From Turneriella sp. (GTDB lineage: Bacteria; Spirochaetota; Leptospiria; Turneriellales; Turneriellaceae), in NCBI GenBank assembly GCA_965279515.1, contig CBDIID010000003.1, positions 3,200,001 through 3,264,000 on the forward strand: a stretch of 64,000 nt of DNA, read 5' to 3'. Position 1 is the first letter of the stretch, and every line of letters starts with the position of its first letter. Under the pieces are notes generated by a model. It was not told the origin of the DNA, made no database searches, and saw only the letters and a list, made by a program, of their open reading frames with translations. A program made the translations under genes and the position numbers. Shown here in pieces: positions 34,477 through 40,895 of the stretch.

Positions 34477-36429
34477 CTAAGCCTTTTGAGCCGGAACCAT
34501 CAAACCGTATTTGAGCATTTTGGCTTTGAGCGTATTGATGGTTATTCCGAGCTCCCGGCGGGTGCGGTTTTTGTTGAAATTATTCTTTGTCAGAAACTGG
34601 GCTATCAGTGTCCGCTCGCCGGCTTCGAGGGGACTTAGCTGCCCCTCTGTAGCCGGCAGGCGGCGCAACAGCGGAATCTCGGCGATTTCCCGGGACACTG
34701 AAGTCGCAACGGCGATCTCGATACTTTCCCGCAACTCGGCGATATTCCCGGGCCAGGAATGTCTTCTGAGTTTTTGCATCACCGCCACAGAAAACTCCGG
34801 CGGCGTATGTCCCGTTGCCTGCGCGGCTTTGCGCGCAAAGAGAAGCGCGAGAAATTCCGTATCCTGGGGGCGACTGCGCAGGGGGATGGATTTTAGTGCC
34901 AGAGTGTCTAGCCGTGCAAGCAGACCCTGCTCTGTGATTTTTGAACTGAGATTTTCGGAGGCCGTCAGGTAAAAACGTATCTGATCCGAAAACATATCGA
35001 CGAGTGTCCAGAGCGTTTTCATTCCCTCCACACCAAGTTCATCGCAATGGCGGATCAGCACTGCGGTATCACCCGTTTTCGCTGCGGTGATTGCTTCGAG
35101 GCTTTTCTGATGGATTGTTTCGACGGTGTCGAGTCTGCCGGAGCGCTCCAGAAGTTTTTTTCCACCGCGCCGATGGTGCAGGGCGCGGCAAAGCATCGCC
35201 TTACCGGTTGACGCTTCGCCGGTGATAACGACCGGTTGGGTCAGCGCCTGGCGCCTGGCCAGTTGTTGCAGCAGTTGAAAAAACTCTGGCGTCGCGCAGA
35301 TCATTTCCTGTCCCCAGAATTCTGAGAATTCCGCGAGGTTTTCATCGACAGCTGCGTAGGTTGACATGCCTGGTTGCCCGACTTTAGGGGTCCTGGCTAT
35401 TTCGTCACTCAGCCATTTTTCCTGTAGCAGGCTCTCTGCGCGTATCAGGGAAAAAAACATTCTCTGGTTCTCTGTATAAAGATGCTGCAACGAATTGGTG
35501 AGGCTCCGCGCGACCACAGAGTGGTTTGGCGATTCCAGCCTGTTTCCCGCGGTATGTTCGAGAGTTACCTGAATCAACGTCCCCGGTTTGACGCGGAAGG
35601 TAATCCGCCGTGAAATCTGTTCAGCACCTTTATGCAGCAGGCTGCGCAGGCCCTGGATGACTTCGCGGAGAGCCACCTGATTGTCTTCGTGCAGGCTTAA
35701 CCCTTGACCCAGCAGGCGTGCAAATTCGCGTTTCAGGCTAATCGCCTCACTATTTGCAAGCAGGTAAAGCACCGTGGCGAAAAAAAGCATGGGGAATATG
35801 CCGCCCAGAATGGAAAGGTAGGATTTTTGGGTGATCGCGGGAATAAGCCCGTTGGTGATCGTCATGCAGACAAAAATGAAACCACTGACTGCAAGCGTCG
35901 CGCCGATCTGGAATTTTTGAAACGGGATGCGACACCTGCGCCAGGAAAGGTAGAAGAGTCCGATAGCAGTAAGGCCCACCGTGGCAAGAAATGCAATGAG
36001 GGGCAGATGGAGTATTCCATGTACCGCCTGGAATTTCGGATAATGATCCAAAATCGCCACATCTACGATGATGAGCGGCGTCGCCATGGCCATAATCGCC
36101 GCGGCAAGTAGTGATGCCTGTATGAAACGGAAGACCAGGTGTTTGCTCCATGCCGGATTACCTCCGAAGGCAACGACAAAGAAACCAAAAGCACTGTGTA
36201 TCAAGATTCCCGAGGTGAAAATAACCCTCGTCAATAAGAGGGGATTTGAGTCACCCAGCGGGCTTAACCATTTTGCGAACAAGGCGTTGAAGTAAATGGC
36301 TCCGGCGCCCAAAAGATACAAAAAGGCAAACCTGAGATTCCGGTTTGGAATTTTCCTGATTGCCCATAAAAAGAAGAGGGCAGAACAGAGGTCAAAAATA
36401 ATCCACCAGCCAAATGCAAGTAAATTCAT
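34477..36429 (-). CDS. Membrane-anchored regulator: 7TM (HisKA_7TM-like) sensor plus degenerate sigma54-type AAA+ domain plus Fis HTH
   Basis: ~7 N-terminal TM helices; ITGEASTGK, IPLRSRPQD, HSWPGNIAEL; C-terminal NNFNKNRTRRELGITINTLKAKM; no GAFTGA. Confidence 0.8.
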   Translation of the reverse strand: MNLLAFGWWIIFDLCSALFFLWAIRKIPNRNLRFAFLYLLGAGAIYFNALFAKWLSPLGDSNPLLLTRVIFTSGILIHSAFGFFVVAFGGNPAWSKHLVFRFIQASLLAAAIMAMATPLIIVDVAILDHYPKFQAVHGILHLPLIAFLATVGLTAIGLFYLSWRRCRIPFQKFQIGATLAVSGFIFVCMTITNGLIPAITQKSYLSILGGIFPMLFFATVLYLLANSEAISLKREFARLLGQGLSLHEDNQVALREVIQGLRSLLHKGAEQISRRITFRVKPGTLIQVTLEHTAGNRLESPNHSVVARSLTNSLQHLYTENQRMFFSLIRAESLLQEKWLSDEIARTPKVGQPGMSTYAAVDENLAEFSEFWGQEMICATPEFFQLLQQLARRQALTQPVVITGEASTGKAMLCRALHHRRGGKKLLERSGRLDTVETIHQKSLEAITAAKTGDTAVLIRHCDELGVEGMKTLWTLVDMFSDQIRFYLTASENLSSKITEQGLLARLDTLALKSIPLRSRPQDTEFLALLFARKAAQATGHTPPEFSVAVMQKLRRHSWPGNIAELRESIEIAVATSVSREIAEIPLLRRLPATEGQLSPLEAGERTLIAQFLTKNNFNKNRTRRELGITINTLKAKMLKYGLMVPAQKA

Positions 36430-37682
36430 AAGCGTACCTTCTCTATGATCAGACTTGAATTGATGCCGCCAATACCGTGCGCGTTGATGAGCACTCCGGA
36501 AACTTCGCTGGGCCTCGATTGCTTTGAAACGTTCATTTCACAGGCAGGGTCGGGATGCTCCAGATTGAATGTGCCAGGGATGTTTTGATGCTCTATCGCC
36601 AACGCAGAGGCCGCTACCTGCATAGCACCTGCCACGGAAAATCCCTGACCGACCGCTCCTTTGATCGAGGCCGTGGGAATCGTTTTACCCTTACTGCCGA
36701 AAACCATCCCGATGGCAGTGGCCTCGGCGGCATCCGAATGTTTATCTGATGGCGCATGCGCGTTGATAAAGTTTATTTCCGTTCCTGAACCCTGGCCATG
36801 AAACAGGTTCTTTAGGTGCTCTGCCCAGCGCTGTCCCGTAGCGTCGAGCATGTAGAGCTCGTTGACATTCTCTGCCGATTGCCTGTAACCGGTGATTTCA
36901 GCGTAGATGCGGGCGCCCCGCGAAATTGCGTATTCCATATCCTCGAGAATAAATACCGCCGCCCCTTCACCGAGGGCCCTTTTAGTCCTGCGCTCATCAA
37001 ACGGGCAAACAGCATCTTCGGCCGTGAGCCCGGTAGTGAGGAAGCGAGCAGCGCAGAAGGCTCCGTATACCATGCGATTGATCGGTGTGTCGACCGAGCC
37101 GGAGATTGCAATATCTGCCTCCCCTGATCGGATGCGATGGTATGCGTGCCCGAGAGCATTAATCGCGCTGGCGCAGGCTGTAGTTACTGTTGTCACATAG
37201 GATTCGACGCCGTGGGTAAGGGCAATAGCGCAGGCGGGGGCATTTGCGAATGCTTTCGTCATGGCCAGGGGATCGAGAATGCCGGGATCGTACCTGCTTC
37301 CCCGGGAAGGACTTTTCATAATTTCCTTTTCGATCACGTCGAACGCGCTCGTGCCCGTGCCCATGATCACGTCGGTGCGATAAGGATCAAACCCCTTTAA
37401 TCCCGAATCGCTGATCGCTTCTTCTGCCGCAATCAGCGCGAACTGGGTGGCGCGCGAAAAACGTTTTGCCGTCTTCGCCGGCAAGTAACGCGTCGCATCG
37501 AAATCTGAAATCTCACCCGCGAGCCGGCTGGGATACGTTTCCGCGTCGAATAGTGTGATCGGCTTAATGCCGGTTTTGCCCGCGAGCAGGTTATCCCAGA
37601 ATGGCTGTTTTCCGATACCGATTGGCGAAACAACACCGATGCCCGTCAGGGCGACGCGAATCGGTGATGTTAACTTACCCAT
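36426..37682 (-). CDS. Divergent FabF-like beta-ketoacyl synthase
   Basis: RVALTGIGVVSPIG, TTACAS, PFD, GEGA, INAHAPS, SIKGAVGQ, NAHGIGGINSSL. Confidence 0.9.
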   Translation of the reverse strand: MGKLTSPIRVALTGIGVVSPIGIGKQPFWDNLLAGKTGIKPITLFDAETYPSRLAGEISDFDATRYLPAKTAKRFSRATQFALIAAEEAISDSGLKGFDPYRTDVIMGTGTSAFDVIEKEIMKSPSRGSRYDPGILDPLAMTKAFANAPACAIALTHGVESYVTTVTTACASAINALGHAYHRIRSGEADIAISGSVDTPINRMVYGAFCAARFLTTGLTAEDAVCPFDERRTKRALGEGAAVFILEDMEYAISRGARIYAEITGYRQSAENVNELYMLDATGQRWAEHLKNLFHGQGSGTEINFINAHAPSDKHSDAAEATAIGMVFGSKGKTIPTASIKGAVGQGFSVAGAMQVAASALAIEHQNIPGTFNLEHPDPACEMNVSKQSRPSEVSGVLINAHGIGGINSSLIIEKVRL

Positions 37683-38578
37683 TACCTAAAGAAGAGTTTC
37701 ACCGAGAGCGACGTCAAAAGCGACAGGGGGATGCCCACCGAGAGCATCGCGGCCACGAGGGGCGGGTTGAGGTTCCTCTGCATCGCGATGATGCCACCCG
37801 TAATCATGGGGCCCATCGCGGCTTCGAGAACGACGATCTTTTTCAGGTCAAGGTTGTAGGCAAAGGCTGTGTAGATAAGGTAAATCGCGACAGGCGCCAG
37901 TACGAGTTTAAATCCTAAGCCGTAGCTGAGCTCTTTGACAAATTTTTTCAGTTGTTTGGCTTCCCATTGAAAGCCGACCGAAATCAGCGCCAGGGGGGCG
38001 AGGGTGTCTGACAGGCGCTCAGCCACGGTGAAGACAAGTTCAATCGGGCGCAGGCGCTGGAAGATAAACGCAAGAATCAGCGCGATAAAGGGCGGAAAAA
38101 GCAGCAGGTCTTTGACGGCAGTCTTCAGGTTGAACTCGCCGATGCGCAAAAAATCCACCAAAGGAATGACGACGACCGCCAGCAGGAGAAAAGTTCCCAT
38201 CTGGTCGATGATGACTGCTACGGGAATATACTGCTTGCCGTAGAGGGCTTCGATCACTGGAATTCCGACGAACGAGGTATTGGCGAGACCAGCCGTAAGA
38301 ATGAGAGCCAGCGTTGTATTGCGGTTGAAAACCTTCAGGCGCTCCAGCGCAAGAAAGATCAGAGCCGCGAGACCGAACATAATCCAGGGCATGAGCGCAG
38401 CGCTGAAGTATGCGGGCGTCATGGGAATAATGCGCAGCGATTTGATGACGAGAGCCGGCAGTGAGACATAGATGATGAAGTTGTTGAGGACGAGATGAGC
38501 ATTCTCGGGCAACTTCTTGAAGCGACGCAGGACAATACCGGTCAGAAAACTGACACCGATCAGAACGAGTACAGGCAT
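37682..38578 (-). CDS. AEC (auxin efflux carrier) family transporter
   Basis: LNNFIIYVSLPAL, NTSFVGIPVIEALYG, PLALISVG, KLVLAP, LEAAMGP. Confidence 0.9.
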   Translation of the reverse strand: MPVLVLIGVSFLTGIVLRRFKKLPENAHLVLNNFIIYVSLPALVIKSLRIIPMTPAYFSAALMPWIMFGLAALIFLALERLKVFNRNTTLALILTAGLANTSFVGIPVIEALYGKQYIPVAVIIDQMGTFLLLAVVVIPLVDFLRIGEFNLKTAVKDLLLFPPFIALILAFIFQRLRPIELVFTVAERLSDTLAPLALISVGFQWEAKQLKKFVKELSYGLGFKLVLAPVAIYLIYTAFAYNLDLKKIVVLEAAMGPMITGGIIAMQRNLNPPLVAAMLSVGIPLSLLTSLSVKLFFR

Positions 38579-38579
38579 A

Positions 38580-39683
38580 TCAAGTTAACGAATCGTACTG
38601 CGCGGTCTGCGCGATCAGAAACTGATCGACCAGCACAAGCGCGAGCATCGCTTCGACAATCGGCACCGCGCGGGGCAGCACGCAGGGGTCGTGACGCCCC
38701 TTGACCTTCAGCATCACACTCTCGCCGCGCTCATTGACAGACGGCTGTTCGTGGCTGATCGTCGCGGTCGGCTTGAAGGCGACGCGGATATCGATCGGCA
38801 TACCGTTCGAGATACCGCCTTGTATGCCACCCGAGTAGTTGGTCTTTGTGCGCACCTTGCCATTCTGCATTTCAAAAATATCGTTGTGTTCGCTGCCAGT
38901 CATCGCCGCCGAAGAAAATCCGCTGCCAATCTCGATACCTTTCGTCGCGGGGATTGCCAGCATCGCGCGCGCAATGAGTGCGTCGAGGCGGTCGAATACC
39001 GGGTCGCCCCAACCGGCAGGCACACCGACCGCATGGCAGGTCACGACGCCGCCCAGGGAGTCACCCGCCTGGCGGGTGTCTTGAATCAGCCGCGTCATTT
39101 TTTCCGCGAGCTCGGCGTCGGGCACACGCACGGCATTCGCTTCAATCTTTTCACGCGCCGCCTCGACCTGGGCGAGATCGACAGCGCCCTTATAAAGAAG
39201 ATCTTTGATTTGTGAAACATAGCCGACGATTTCAACGCCTGCCTTTTCGCGGAGGATCTTCTTCGCCACGGCGCCCGCAGCGACGACGCCAATCGTGGCG
39301 CGCGCCGAGGAGCGCCCGCCGCCGCGCCATGCGCGGTGTTTGTAACGTTCGTGGTAGGTGAAGTCGGCGTGGCTGGGACGGAAAACTTCTTTGATATCGC
39401 TGTAATCTTTTTCGCGCGCGTTTTCATTAAAAACAGCCACCGCAATCGGGCTACCCACGGTTTTGTCTTCAAAGGTGCCCGAGAGAATTTTGACGCGGTC
39501 AGGTTCGTCGCGCGGCGTTGTGATGCGGCTCTGGCCGGGTCGGCGGCGGTTCATATCGGGCTGTATATCTGCCGCGGTGAGCGGCATGCCCGCCGGGCAG
39601 TTCTCGATCACACAGCCCAGCGCTTCGCCGTGTGATTCACCGTAGGTCGTGACGCGGAAAAGCCTTCCGATCGAGCTGCCCAT
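38580..39683 (-). CDS. aroC: Chorismate synthase
   Basis: [47 protein letters not shown]. Confidence 0.97.
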
Positions 39684-39770: not shown

Positions 39771-40895
39771 ATGCACCTGACTCCCTATATCTCGGCGATC
39801 AGCCTCGGCGTTTTAGTCTTTCTTGCGGTATTATTGCTGATCGACAGGCAGCGTGCGCCGGGGACGCGTTATCTTTTCGCGCTACTCGTCATTCTCGGTT
39901 CGATCATCGCCACACGGCTGGTTTTTCACCTGGGGAGCGAGCTGCTGATTTACATGCCATTTTTTGTTTTCCCGGCGATTTTTTCCTATGCGCCGAGCGC
40001 CTACCTTTATTGCGAAGAGGCGCTGTTCAACCGCCGGCCGGGCAAGACACTTTGGCTGGGATTAACCATTGCCCCGCTTTCGGCGCTCTGCGTGCACCTT
40101 TTTTTCCACTTCAGATTTGCAGAGCTGCGCGACGTGGCCCAGGTCACTACACAGGGCGGCGTCATCGCTACCTACAGCCGTATTCTGTTTGGGGCCGCCG
40201 TGCTCTACAATGCGGTTTTTTTAATGCTCACGTGGCGCAATATCCATATCTACAACCGCGCCTATAAAGAAAATTTTGCGGGGGCTGACCGCGATCAGCT
40301 GCAATGGTTCCGCATCTTTTTGCTGTTGAACCTGTTTCTGGTCGTTAGTTTTTTGTGTAGCCTCTTCGTGATCTGGTTCTACGATCTCAGGATTCCGTCG
40401 ACGCCGCTCGAGGGCTTCGTTGCACTGATCCTGATTTACGTCATTCTCTATTATTTTATCCGCAAACCTGCGATCTTCACATTGCCGGCAGTCACGCAGG
40501 AAACAAACAAGAGCGACAGGTCGGCAAAATACCGGAAGCAGAATTTATCGGATGCCGAACGCAAGGTATACCTGGCAAAGATCGAAAAATACCTGGCGGA
40601 AGAAAAACCCTTTCTCGATGACAAGGTGACACTCGCCTCGTTGTCGCGGGAACTCGGTATTCCGGCGCACCATTTTTCGATGGTCATCAACATCGAACGC
40701 AACACGAATTTTTATCACTTCATCAACGCCTACCGCGTCGAAGAAGCCAAATCACTGCTGACGCGTGCTGATATGGATGACGAAACTGTGCTAGACATCG
40801 GCCTCATGGCAGGGTTTCAGTCGAAGGCGGGGTTCAATAAAGTCTTCAAGGAAATCACAGGGAAAACGCCGAGTGAATTCAGGGAAAAAAAATGA
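39771..40895 (+). CDS. Membrane-anchored AraC-family regulator
   Basis: Multi-TM N-terminus; [49 protein letters not shown]. Confidence 0.92.

Follow-up and report, generated by a model that had tools for sequence, protein, structure and literature searches.

A 64,000-nucleotide stretch of a Turneriella sp. genome (GenBank assembly GCA_965279515.1, contig CBDIID010000003.1, positions 3,200,001 to 3,264,000 of the forward strand; "the window" below means this whole stretch) contains overlapping genes for an altered ketosynthase, KS*, and a membrane-bound one-component receptor. The KS*-receptor pair is a conserved two-gene module that likely makes and senses a small acyl-derived signal in the membrane, and among the forms of this module, which occurs in several bacterial phyla, it is the smallest. 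The KS*-7TM module, named for the seven-transmembrane-helix (7TM) sensor of the receptor, is real, widely conserved and apparently undescribed; no description of the pair was found in the literature, with most subscription journals and supplements lying outside the coverage.

KS* is linked to 7TM proteins across phyla

A set of 224 distinct FabF-type genes (loci L021-L296), six of them without downstream room, was divided by alignment according to the state of the second catalytic histidine. A 7TM gene, recognised with a profile built from 37 receptor proteins of the same loci, stands next after 85 of the 88 ketosynthases that lack this histidine, whereas it follows 0 of the 130 that keep it. 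The two genes overlap at 59 of the 85 junctions, and the Pfam family HisKA_7TM independently matched 20 of 28 downstream proteins tested. The conservation of the pair, on which the original prediction depended, is thus borne out by this neighborhood search for ketosynthase and HisKA_7TM genes.

At E 1e-135, matches came from 22 of 251 genomes in one further phylum and from 44 of 65 in another. All 22 and the top 30 of the 44 were inspected, and in 52 of 52 the ketosynthase lacks the second histidine and has a 7TM gene next; the four weakest of the 44 lie outside the inspected set and may be ordinary FabF. The usual gene order in these phyla is a divergent FadL gene, a B12 radical S-adenosylmethionine (SAM) gene in some, KS*, a 7TM-GAF-PAS kinase, a REC-kinase hybrid, and a REC activator or REC-HD protein. 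Of 40 larger regions, 31 have a FadL-like channel, and some of those without it lie at contig ends. The B12 radical-SAM proteins beside KS* all retain CxxxCxxC (13/13), and other loci have a SAM methyltransferase upstream of KS*. The outputs are exchangeable, comprising kinase cascades, a REC-HD domain, AAA+ with a helix-turn-helix (HTH), or an HTH alone.

The enzyme and the sensor also diversify together. In 34 complete loci, which are related rather than independent so that no probability is attached, KS* identity tracks that of the 7TM domain (partial rho 0.41, with the downstream hybrid kinase allowed for), compared with 0.03 for the kinase domain of the 7TM protein. Kinases that are 72-90% identical pair with KS* of 48-64% and 7TM domains of 28-46% identity. 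Linked and co-diversifying synthase and receptor genes, one feature expected of an autoinducer pair, are found here, with the same non-independence of loci.

About 40 of the 65 small genomes in the phylum of G333 have the module, accompanied by the B12 radical-SAM gene and lying in a conserved region of the chromosome, so that it is near-core there.

The two genes of the window

The original prediction placed the genes for an AEC transporter, a ketosynthase and a regulator behind aroC, and the open reading frames (ORFs) are at those positions, on the minus strand. The overlaps TAATG (AEC/KS*) and ATGA (KS*/receptor) are present in the sequence. The parts of the module are as follows.

36426..37682, minus strand: KS*, FabF-fold ketosynthase, 418 residues (from the ORF list, motif alignment and predicted structure).
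37173-37175, 36756-36758: codons of the retained KS* residues Cys170 and His309; Lys341 is also kept.
36645-36647: codon of Gln346, in place of the second His; also altered are HGTST to HAPSD, GFV to RAL, the conserved Glu to Gln355, and FGFGG to HGIGG.
34477..36429, minus strand: one-component receptor, 650 residues, 7TM - helical linker - degenerate AAA+ - Fis HTH.
35755..36423, minus strand: receptor 7TM domain, residues 3-225; a beta-hairpin lies between helices 4 and 5 (from the model and Pfam matches in relatives).
35314..35751, minus strand: receptor linker, residues 227-372, two helices, a hairpin and a long helix, of low model confidence.
34702..35289, minus strand: receptor AAA+ domain, residues 381-576, enhancer-binding-protein fold, predicted inactive.
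34510..34632, minus strand: receptor Fis-type HTH, residues 600-640.

Pfam assigns AEC to Mem_trans, KS* to ketoacyl-synt, and the receptor to AAA_lid_14 and HTH_8 with weak sigma-54-activator matches. As claimed, no acyl carrier protein (ACP) motif and no fab or polyketide synthase (PKS) gene was seen among the ORFs of the window. Promoter and terminator scans gave chance-level results only.

KS* retains acyl-transfer residues and lacks condensation residues

The predicted structure of KS* is of high confidence (pLDDT 95) and superposes on FabF with a TM-score of 0.95. KS* shares 32-36% identity with FabF and scores 318 bits against the curated fabF profile, under the cut-off of 494. The motifs TTACAS, NAHAPS and KGAVGQ are present as originally described and align with the corresponding FabF motifs, including HGTST, KSMxGH, GFV and FGFGG. 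The residue pattern is general. Across 70 KS* homologues, three of them from this genome, the catalytic Cys is retained in 70, the first His in 69 and the Lys in 70, while the second His is found in one and is otherwise replaced by Ser (45), Gln (11), Gly (7), Asn (4) or Ala (2). In a comparison of 80 KS* with 30 ordinary FabF (leaving out a duplicate of the query, three partial or frameshifted rows and one row that keeps the His), the Thr positions of HGTST are changed family-wide, to Pro in 94% and to Asp in 94%, and the conserved Glu of FabF is Gln in 100% of KS*. The GFV motif and the gate Phe are likewise altered, and the Phe preceding the gate Phe is His in 81%. The presumed ACP patch, mapped to E. 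coli numbering by inference, has three basic positions, two of which stay basic in the KS* family.

The first His of such enzymes may also activate a water molecule. In FabF-type structures, His340 is essential for condensation, Thr305 and Thr307 anchor the pantetheine arm, and the oxyanion hole for acyl transfer is formed by backbone amides, according to the portions consulted of 10.1101/2021.02.13.431092 and PMC7138838. Because the second His and the pantetheine-anchoring Thr residues are replaced while the Cys, first His and Lys are kept, KS* has likely lost malonyl elongation and likely retains acyl loading, as judged from its residues.

In a tree from a quick search, the 33 ordinary ketosynthases group together (SH-aLRT 99) to the exclusion of all KS*, three sequences that keep the second His are intermediate between the two groups (94), and the spirochaete KS* fall in a clade of 27 rows (100). 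At two loci, L053 and L059, the ketosynthase is an intermediate with the second His still in place (CGHAHSS motif), and an alpha/beta hydrolase gene lies upstream of it. In L059 the ketosynthase gene is followed by those for a methyltransferase, a radical-SAM enzyme and a HisKA_7TM protein. This arrangement is possibly the ancestral state of the module. A search of representative proteins with the KS* motif region was dominated by multi-module PKS and returned nothing usable.

The receptor is a 7TM sensor joined to a degenerate AAA+ domain

The AlphaFold model of the receptor (mean pLDDT 66) has seven N-terminal helices (3-225), followed by a linker of low confidence, an AAA+ domain of the enhancer-binding type and a C-terminal HTH, and hydropathy also places seven transmembrane helices at the N-terminus. 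The predicted architecture of a roughly seven-helix sensor, AAA+ and Fis HTH is therefore upheld. The assignment of the sensor to HisKA_7TM fares less simply: the Pfam profile (PF16927) has no match on the window receptor, but it matches one of nine close relatives, and L046 and L294, of the same architecture class, score above the cut-off; the window receptor aligns with these matching relatives. In structural comparison, the modeled 7TM domain resembles the G-protein-coupled receptor (GPCR) bundles of GABA-B (Z 17.0, rmsd 4.3, 228 residues aligned) and GPR156 (Z 16.2), on a scale where helical bundles can reach Z 13 through their common arrangement alone. The GPCR-like fold of the model is shared and says nothing of function. 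No solved structure matched the 7TM domain by sequence.

GAFTGA, Walker B and sensor II are the characteristic motifs of sigma-54 activators. In an alignment with three intact activators, the AAA+ domain of the receptor lacks GAFTGA, the Walker B Asp-Glu pair and the sensor II Arg, and it is predicted from these losses to be catalytically inactive. The enhancer-binding likeness of the original prediction thus holds for the fold and the Fis HTH but not for these motifs, and a role of the regulator as a working sigma-54 activator is not supported. The genome encodes sigma-54, which the receptor is predicted not to activate. Within the receptor family, conservation is highest in the Fis HTH. Two relatives (L039 and L046) consist of 7TM, linker and HTH with no AAA+ domain, and the linker is thus also present in relatives lacking AAA+ (within the first ~340 residues). 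A word-limited homologue search with the receptor alignment found only two true relatives besides the query, and the ESM Atlas matches, all under 0.9, serve as leads only. An origin of the AAA+ domain from the final activator of the cascade was considered and is unsupported, since cascade and other activators gave medians of 80 and 85 bits and the tree did not separate them.

The unit is two genes and is patchily distributed

The original prediction included the AEC transporter as a third gene that might export the signal. Neither the three-gene unit nor the export role is retained. The AEC gene (37682..38578, minus strand), downstream of aroC (38580-39683), is a resident of the aroC-AEC-gltB region that lies outside the module. 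It is present in 12 of the 14 genomes of the genus, and at none of 11 other AEC loci was a KS* found within the 1.5 kb fetched. In G007, aroC, AEC and gltB are contiguous, and G002, G004 and G011 hold other genes in the same slot behind AEC. Third-position GC is 0.60 for the KS*-receptor pair, compared with 0.69-0.70 for aroC, AEC and gltB and 0.63 for gltD. Because AEC loci elsewhere lack KS*, the slot is variable and third-position GC is lower in the pair, the KS*-receptor pair is an insertion behind AEC. The pair likely uses the aroC-AEC transcript, and AEC probably supplies read-through transcription only.

KS* was found in 5 of 34 genomes of the order, all within this genus (5/14), with 0 of 20 in other genera and eight genes in total. 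The receptor stands directly behind KS* in all eight, at unrelated sites. KS* was not found in the other nine genomes of the genus, several of which are 98-99% complete. The near-complete genome of the window encodes three divergent KS*-receptor pairs and one orphan receptor; besides the pair in the window, these are as follows.

G000:C3:3445395-3448596: KS*-receptor pair L027.
C3:1422567-1425891: KS*-receptor pair L028.
C3:1056079-1058088: orphan receptor L029, flanked by valS and a PAS kinase, in synteny with G001.

Identity in the receptor is only 24-26% at these loci. Two of the three pairs of this genome have syntenic orthologues in G001, and close orthologue pairs exist (KS* 75-79%, receptor 56-57% identity). 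Receptors without KS* occur in two genomes. A spirochaete-wide search with a short profile returned mostly ordinary FabF, and in family f8 there were 0 of 45 matches at E 1e-15 with a short profile that also missed one paralogue of its own genome.

Upstream of KS* at five related cassettes (L022, L023, L024, L112 and L113), a conserved motif of ~20 bases ending in TTGAC(A) lies 20-40 bases before the start codon, between flanks that cannot be aligned. It is possibly a promoter or operator. The operator search did not find this motif at the cassettes of the window's genome.

Comparison with known systems

KS* shares with FabF/KAS II (B. subtilis 4LS5, T. thermophilus 1J3N) the fold, the Cys, first His and Lys, and the gating-loop Asn. 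It differs in the second His, both pantetheine-anchoring Thr residues, GFV, the gate Phe residues and the conserved Glu, as well as in its linkage to a receptor and its lack of fab neighbors. DarB/PauR is a further system of the same kind as PpyS/PluR photopyrone signaling. Like PpyS, KS* is a stand-alone ketosynthase with a dedicated receptor, for which a lipid signal is proposed without malonyl elongation. However, PpyS resembles OleA, has a Cys-His-Asn triad with a Glu base, and is paired with a soluble LuxR receptor (both likeness and difference taken from a partial text of PMC4578411), while KS* is FabF-type, with FabF as its best matches and a 7TM partner. The likeness to PpyS drawn in the original prediction is therefore not sustained.

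The RpfF-RpfC-RpfG system of the diffusible signal factor shares an enzyme drawing on acyl-ACP, a multi-helix membrane sensor and matched synthase/sensor variants, and its HD-GYP-type output recurs in some KS* loci (L126). RpfF is a crotonase and RpfC has five helices, in contrast to the thiolase-fold enzyme, 7TM bundle and fused DNA-binding output without a kinase found here (Rpf features as given in the available part of PMC4504480). In Ralstonia, PhcB-PhcS-PhcR combines a methyltransferase with a sensor kinase for a fatty-acid-derived signal (excerpts of PMC8578825). In some KS* loci, too, a SAM methyltransferase gene precedes KS* and a REC-kinase hybrid follows, but the window version has neither methyltransferase nor kinase. 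The Phc system is not known to include a ketosynthase.

The sigma-54 enhancer-binding proteins NtrC1, NtrC4, FlrC and NtrX have the AAA+ fold and Fis HTH in common with the window receptor, which lacks their three motifs, has a 7TM membrane input and belongs to a family in which two members dispense with AAA+. The seven-helix bundle is shared with HisKA_7TM kinases and prokaryotic GPCR-like 7TM proteins, but here it is fused to a DNA-binding domain. The GPCR likeness of bacterial 7TM kinase domains has been published (PMC13581589, seen in part). HisKA_7TM domains are common sensors, for which the sections consulted of PMC5847659 and PMC13581589 name no ligand or synthase partner. By analogy, the KS*-receptor pair most likely works like PpyS/PluR, RpfF/RpfC or PhcB/PhcS, but it is a member of none of them, since it lacks features tested for FabF, for PpyS and for sigma-54 activators.

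A proposed signal synthase and its receptor

On balance, KS* is probably a malonyl-independent acyl-signal synthase with a cognate membrane-bound transcription factor. This reading is favored because the Cys-His-Lys set is kept, modifying enzymes are intact, a FadL channel and orphan receptors occur, and enzyme and sensor diversify jointly. We infer that KS* would take an acyl chain from ordinary cellular acyl-ACP onto Cys170 and, without the second His and malonyl pocket, would not elongate it with malonyl-ACP. The chain may instead be passed to another nucleophile, such as water or a second acyl unit, to give a diffusible lipid, which partner enzymes in other phyla may methylate. The lipid would bind the GPCR-like 7TM bundle, and its effect would be relayed through the helical linker to the AAA+ domain, acting as a catalytically dead scaffold, and to the Fis HTH. 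The HTH would then act on DNA, as part of a membrane-tethered, sigma-54-independent regulator.

Several observations weigh against this interpretation. No FadL-family match was found in the window's genome, and no FadL, modifying enzyme or exporter at the loci of this genus. The 37 proteins used to build the 7TM profile are among these partners, with Pfam confirming 20 of 28 independently, and the split of 85/88 versus 0/130 probably has one evolutionary origin. Three ketosynthases without the second His are exceptions, followed by a metallophosphoesterase (L114) or by a second ketosynthase and PAS-domain regulators (L134 and L156). At the third position of the presumed ACP patch, a basic residue is mostly absent. 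The baseline similarity of helical bundles lessens the GPCR comparison, and the co-divergence of KS* and 7TM is also expected from physical partners or simple adjacency. The product, ligand and target gene are putative only. Of the original proposal, the synthase/receptor signaling pair is supported to the extent that the pair is conserved far beyond chance and its context in other phyla fits, but without AEC export or likeness to PpyS.

A rival explanation, which we consider possible though rather unlikely, is that nothing is secreted and KS* is a cytoplasmic co-sensor. It would be acylated on Cys170 according to the acyl-ACP/CoA pool, or bound there by a thiol-reactive inhibitor of fatty-acid synthesis, and would dock on the inner face of its cognate 7TM domain. 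Strict adjacency with overlapping junctions, one KS* per receptor in three paralogous pairs, loss of the condensation machinery while the Cys stays, and co-divergence of KS* with 7TM speak for this model. Inactive RpfF offers a precedent, as it supports Xylella signaling, the synthase acting by contact (PMC4504480, in the same available part). However, the FadL-like channels and intact radical-SAM and methyltransferase genes point to a made molecule that crosses the outer membrane, the near-invariance of the first His and Lys exceeds the needs of a binding protein, and orphan receptors occur. Co-sensing explains the tight coupling as well as the synthase model does, and the two need not exclude each other. 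It is less likely again that KS* works as an acyltransferase and that its product, which may be an acylated lipid, a metabolite or the receptor itself, remains within the cell or the membrane. The circuit would then be an internal acyl-status switch rather than cell-cell signaling. Only the transacylation residues are certainly intact, at two loci KS* is accompanied by additional condensing enzymes and by cytoplasmic PAS regulators, and no export or uptake gene was found in this genus; but the diversification of KS* and sensor against a conserved cascade, and the FadL linkage, better fit an external, strain-specific cue.

It is very unlikely that the module, though genuine elsewhere, has decayed in the window into a passenger cassette whose output is dead and which is retained by chance alone. 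The patchy distribution (5/14 genomes of the genus), a dead AAA+ domain with very long branches and the lack of an own promoter region are consistent with decay, but both ORFs are intact, KS* is modeled with high confidence, the HTH is strongly conserved, and three divergent pairs are kept in one genome, with syntenic or close orthologue pairs elsewhere. It is hardly credible that KS* is a spare FabF for elongation beside an unrelated receptor gene. The FabF fold and the lack of a FabF-type gene beside fabG-acpP in this genome would suit such a role. However, the score is below the fabF cut-off, the essential His is lost, KS* was not found in nine genomes of the genus, several nearly complete, and receptor linkage extends across phyla. 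The original view that the ketosynthase is not merely a fabF stand-in is thus supported.

If the synthase-receptor reading is true, the module would provide a ketosynthase reaction of a new kind, a new family of signals that is common among uncultured lineages, and a GPCR-fold receptor in bacteria that has a lipid as its ligand. It pairs HisKA_7TM domains with a probable ligand-making enzyme, and the window version is minimal, with two genes, no kinase and direct transcriptional output. The three divergent pairs and one orphan in a single genome allow cognate and non-cognate partners to be compared. More tentatively, and with somewhat less than even expectation, the module may constitute an undescribed class of lipid autoinducers, with a FabF-derived enzyme, new release chemistry, GPCR-fold receptors and specificity variants across phyla. 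In this lineage it would be a fused two-gene, one-component quorum circuit in three copies with an eavesdropping orphan, and its signal would be the first HisKA_7TM ligand.

Variant loci and neighboring genes

L134 (4981-11795) contains KS*, a second ketosynthase without the second His and two FabH-like genes, followed by a cytoplasmic PAS regulator with no 7TM domain. L156 (4761-9693) also has KS* and a second such ketosynthase; the followers at the two loci are cytoplasmic PAS-activator or PAS-kinase proteins. These loci are possibly a biosynthetic variant with a soluble sensor. At L039 (7956-13218), the KS* and 7TM-HTH pair immediately precedes ParA, ParB and a DnaA_N/HTH replication-type gene, with a Hint-domain protein adjoining, which suggests a cassette on a plasmid or prophage. 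A tryptophan-halogenase-family gene lies directly behind the 7TM-HTH receptor at L046 (10515-12275), and its product could be a modifying enzyme of the cassette. At L267 (G637), KS* contains a single TAG stop between intact neighbors, indicating a pseudogene or an assembly error.

The genome of the window has three FabB/F-type genes that keep the second His (L337, L338 and L339), in two biosynthetic clusters. One cluster is aryl-polyene-like by inspection, and the other contains a Tes/TrsS-like radical-SAM gene and a PigE-like aminotransferase. The search found a single fabD, and no fabF adjoins fabG-acpP, so this genome may have a reduced capacity for de novo fatty-acid synthesis. Finally, a multi-helix membrane protein with an AraC HTH is encoded at 39771-40895 of the window, divergent from aroC, so that another membrane-bound one-component regulator adjoins the cassette.

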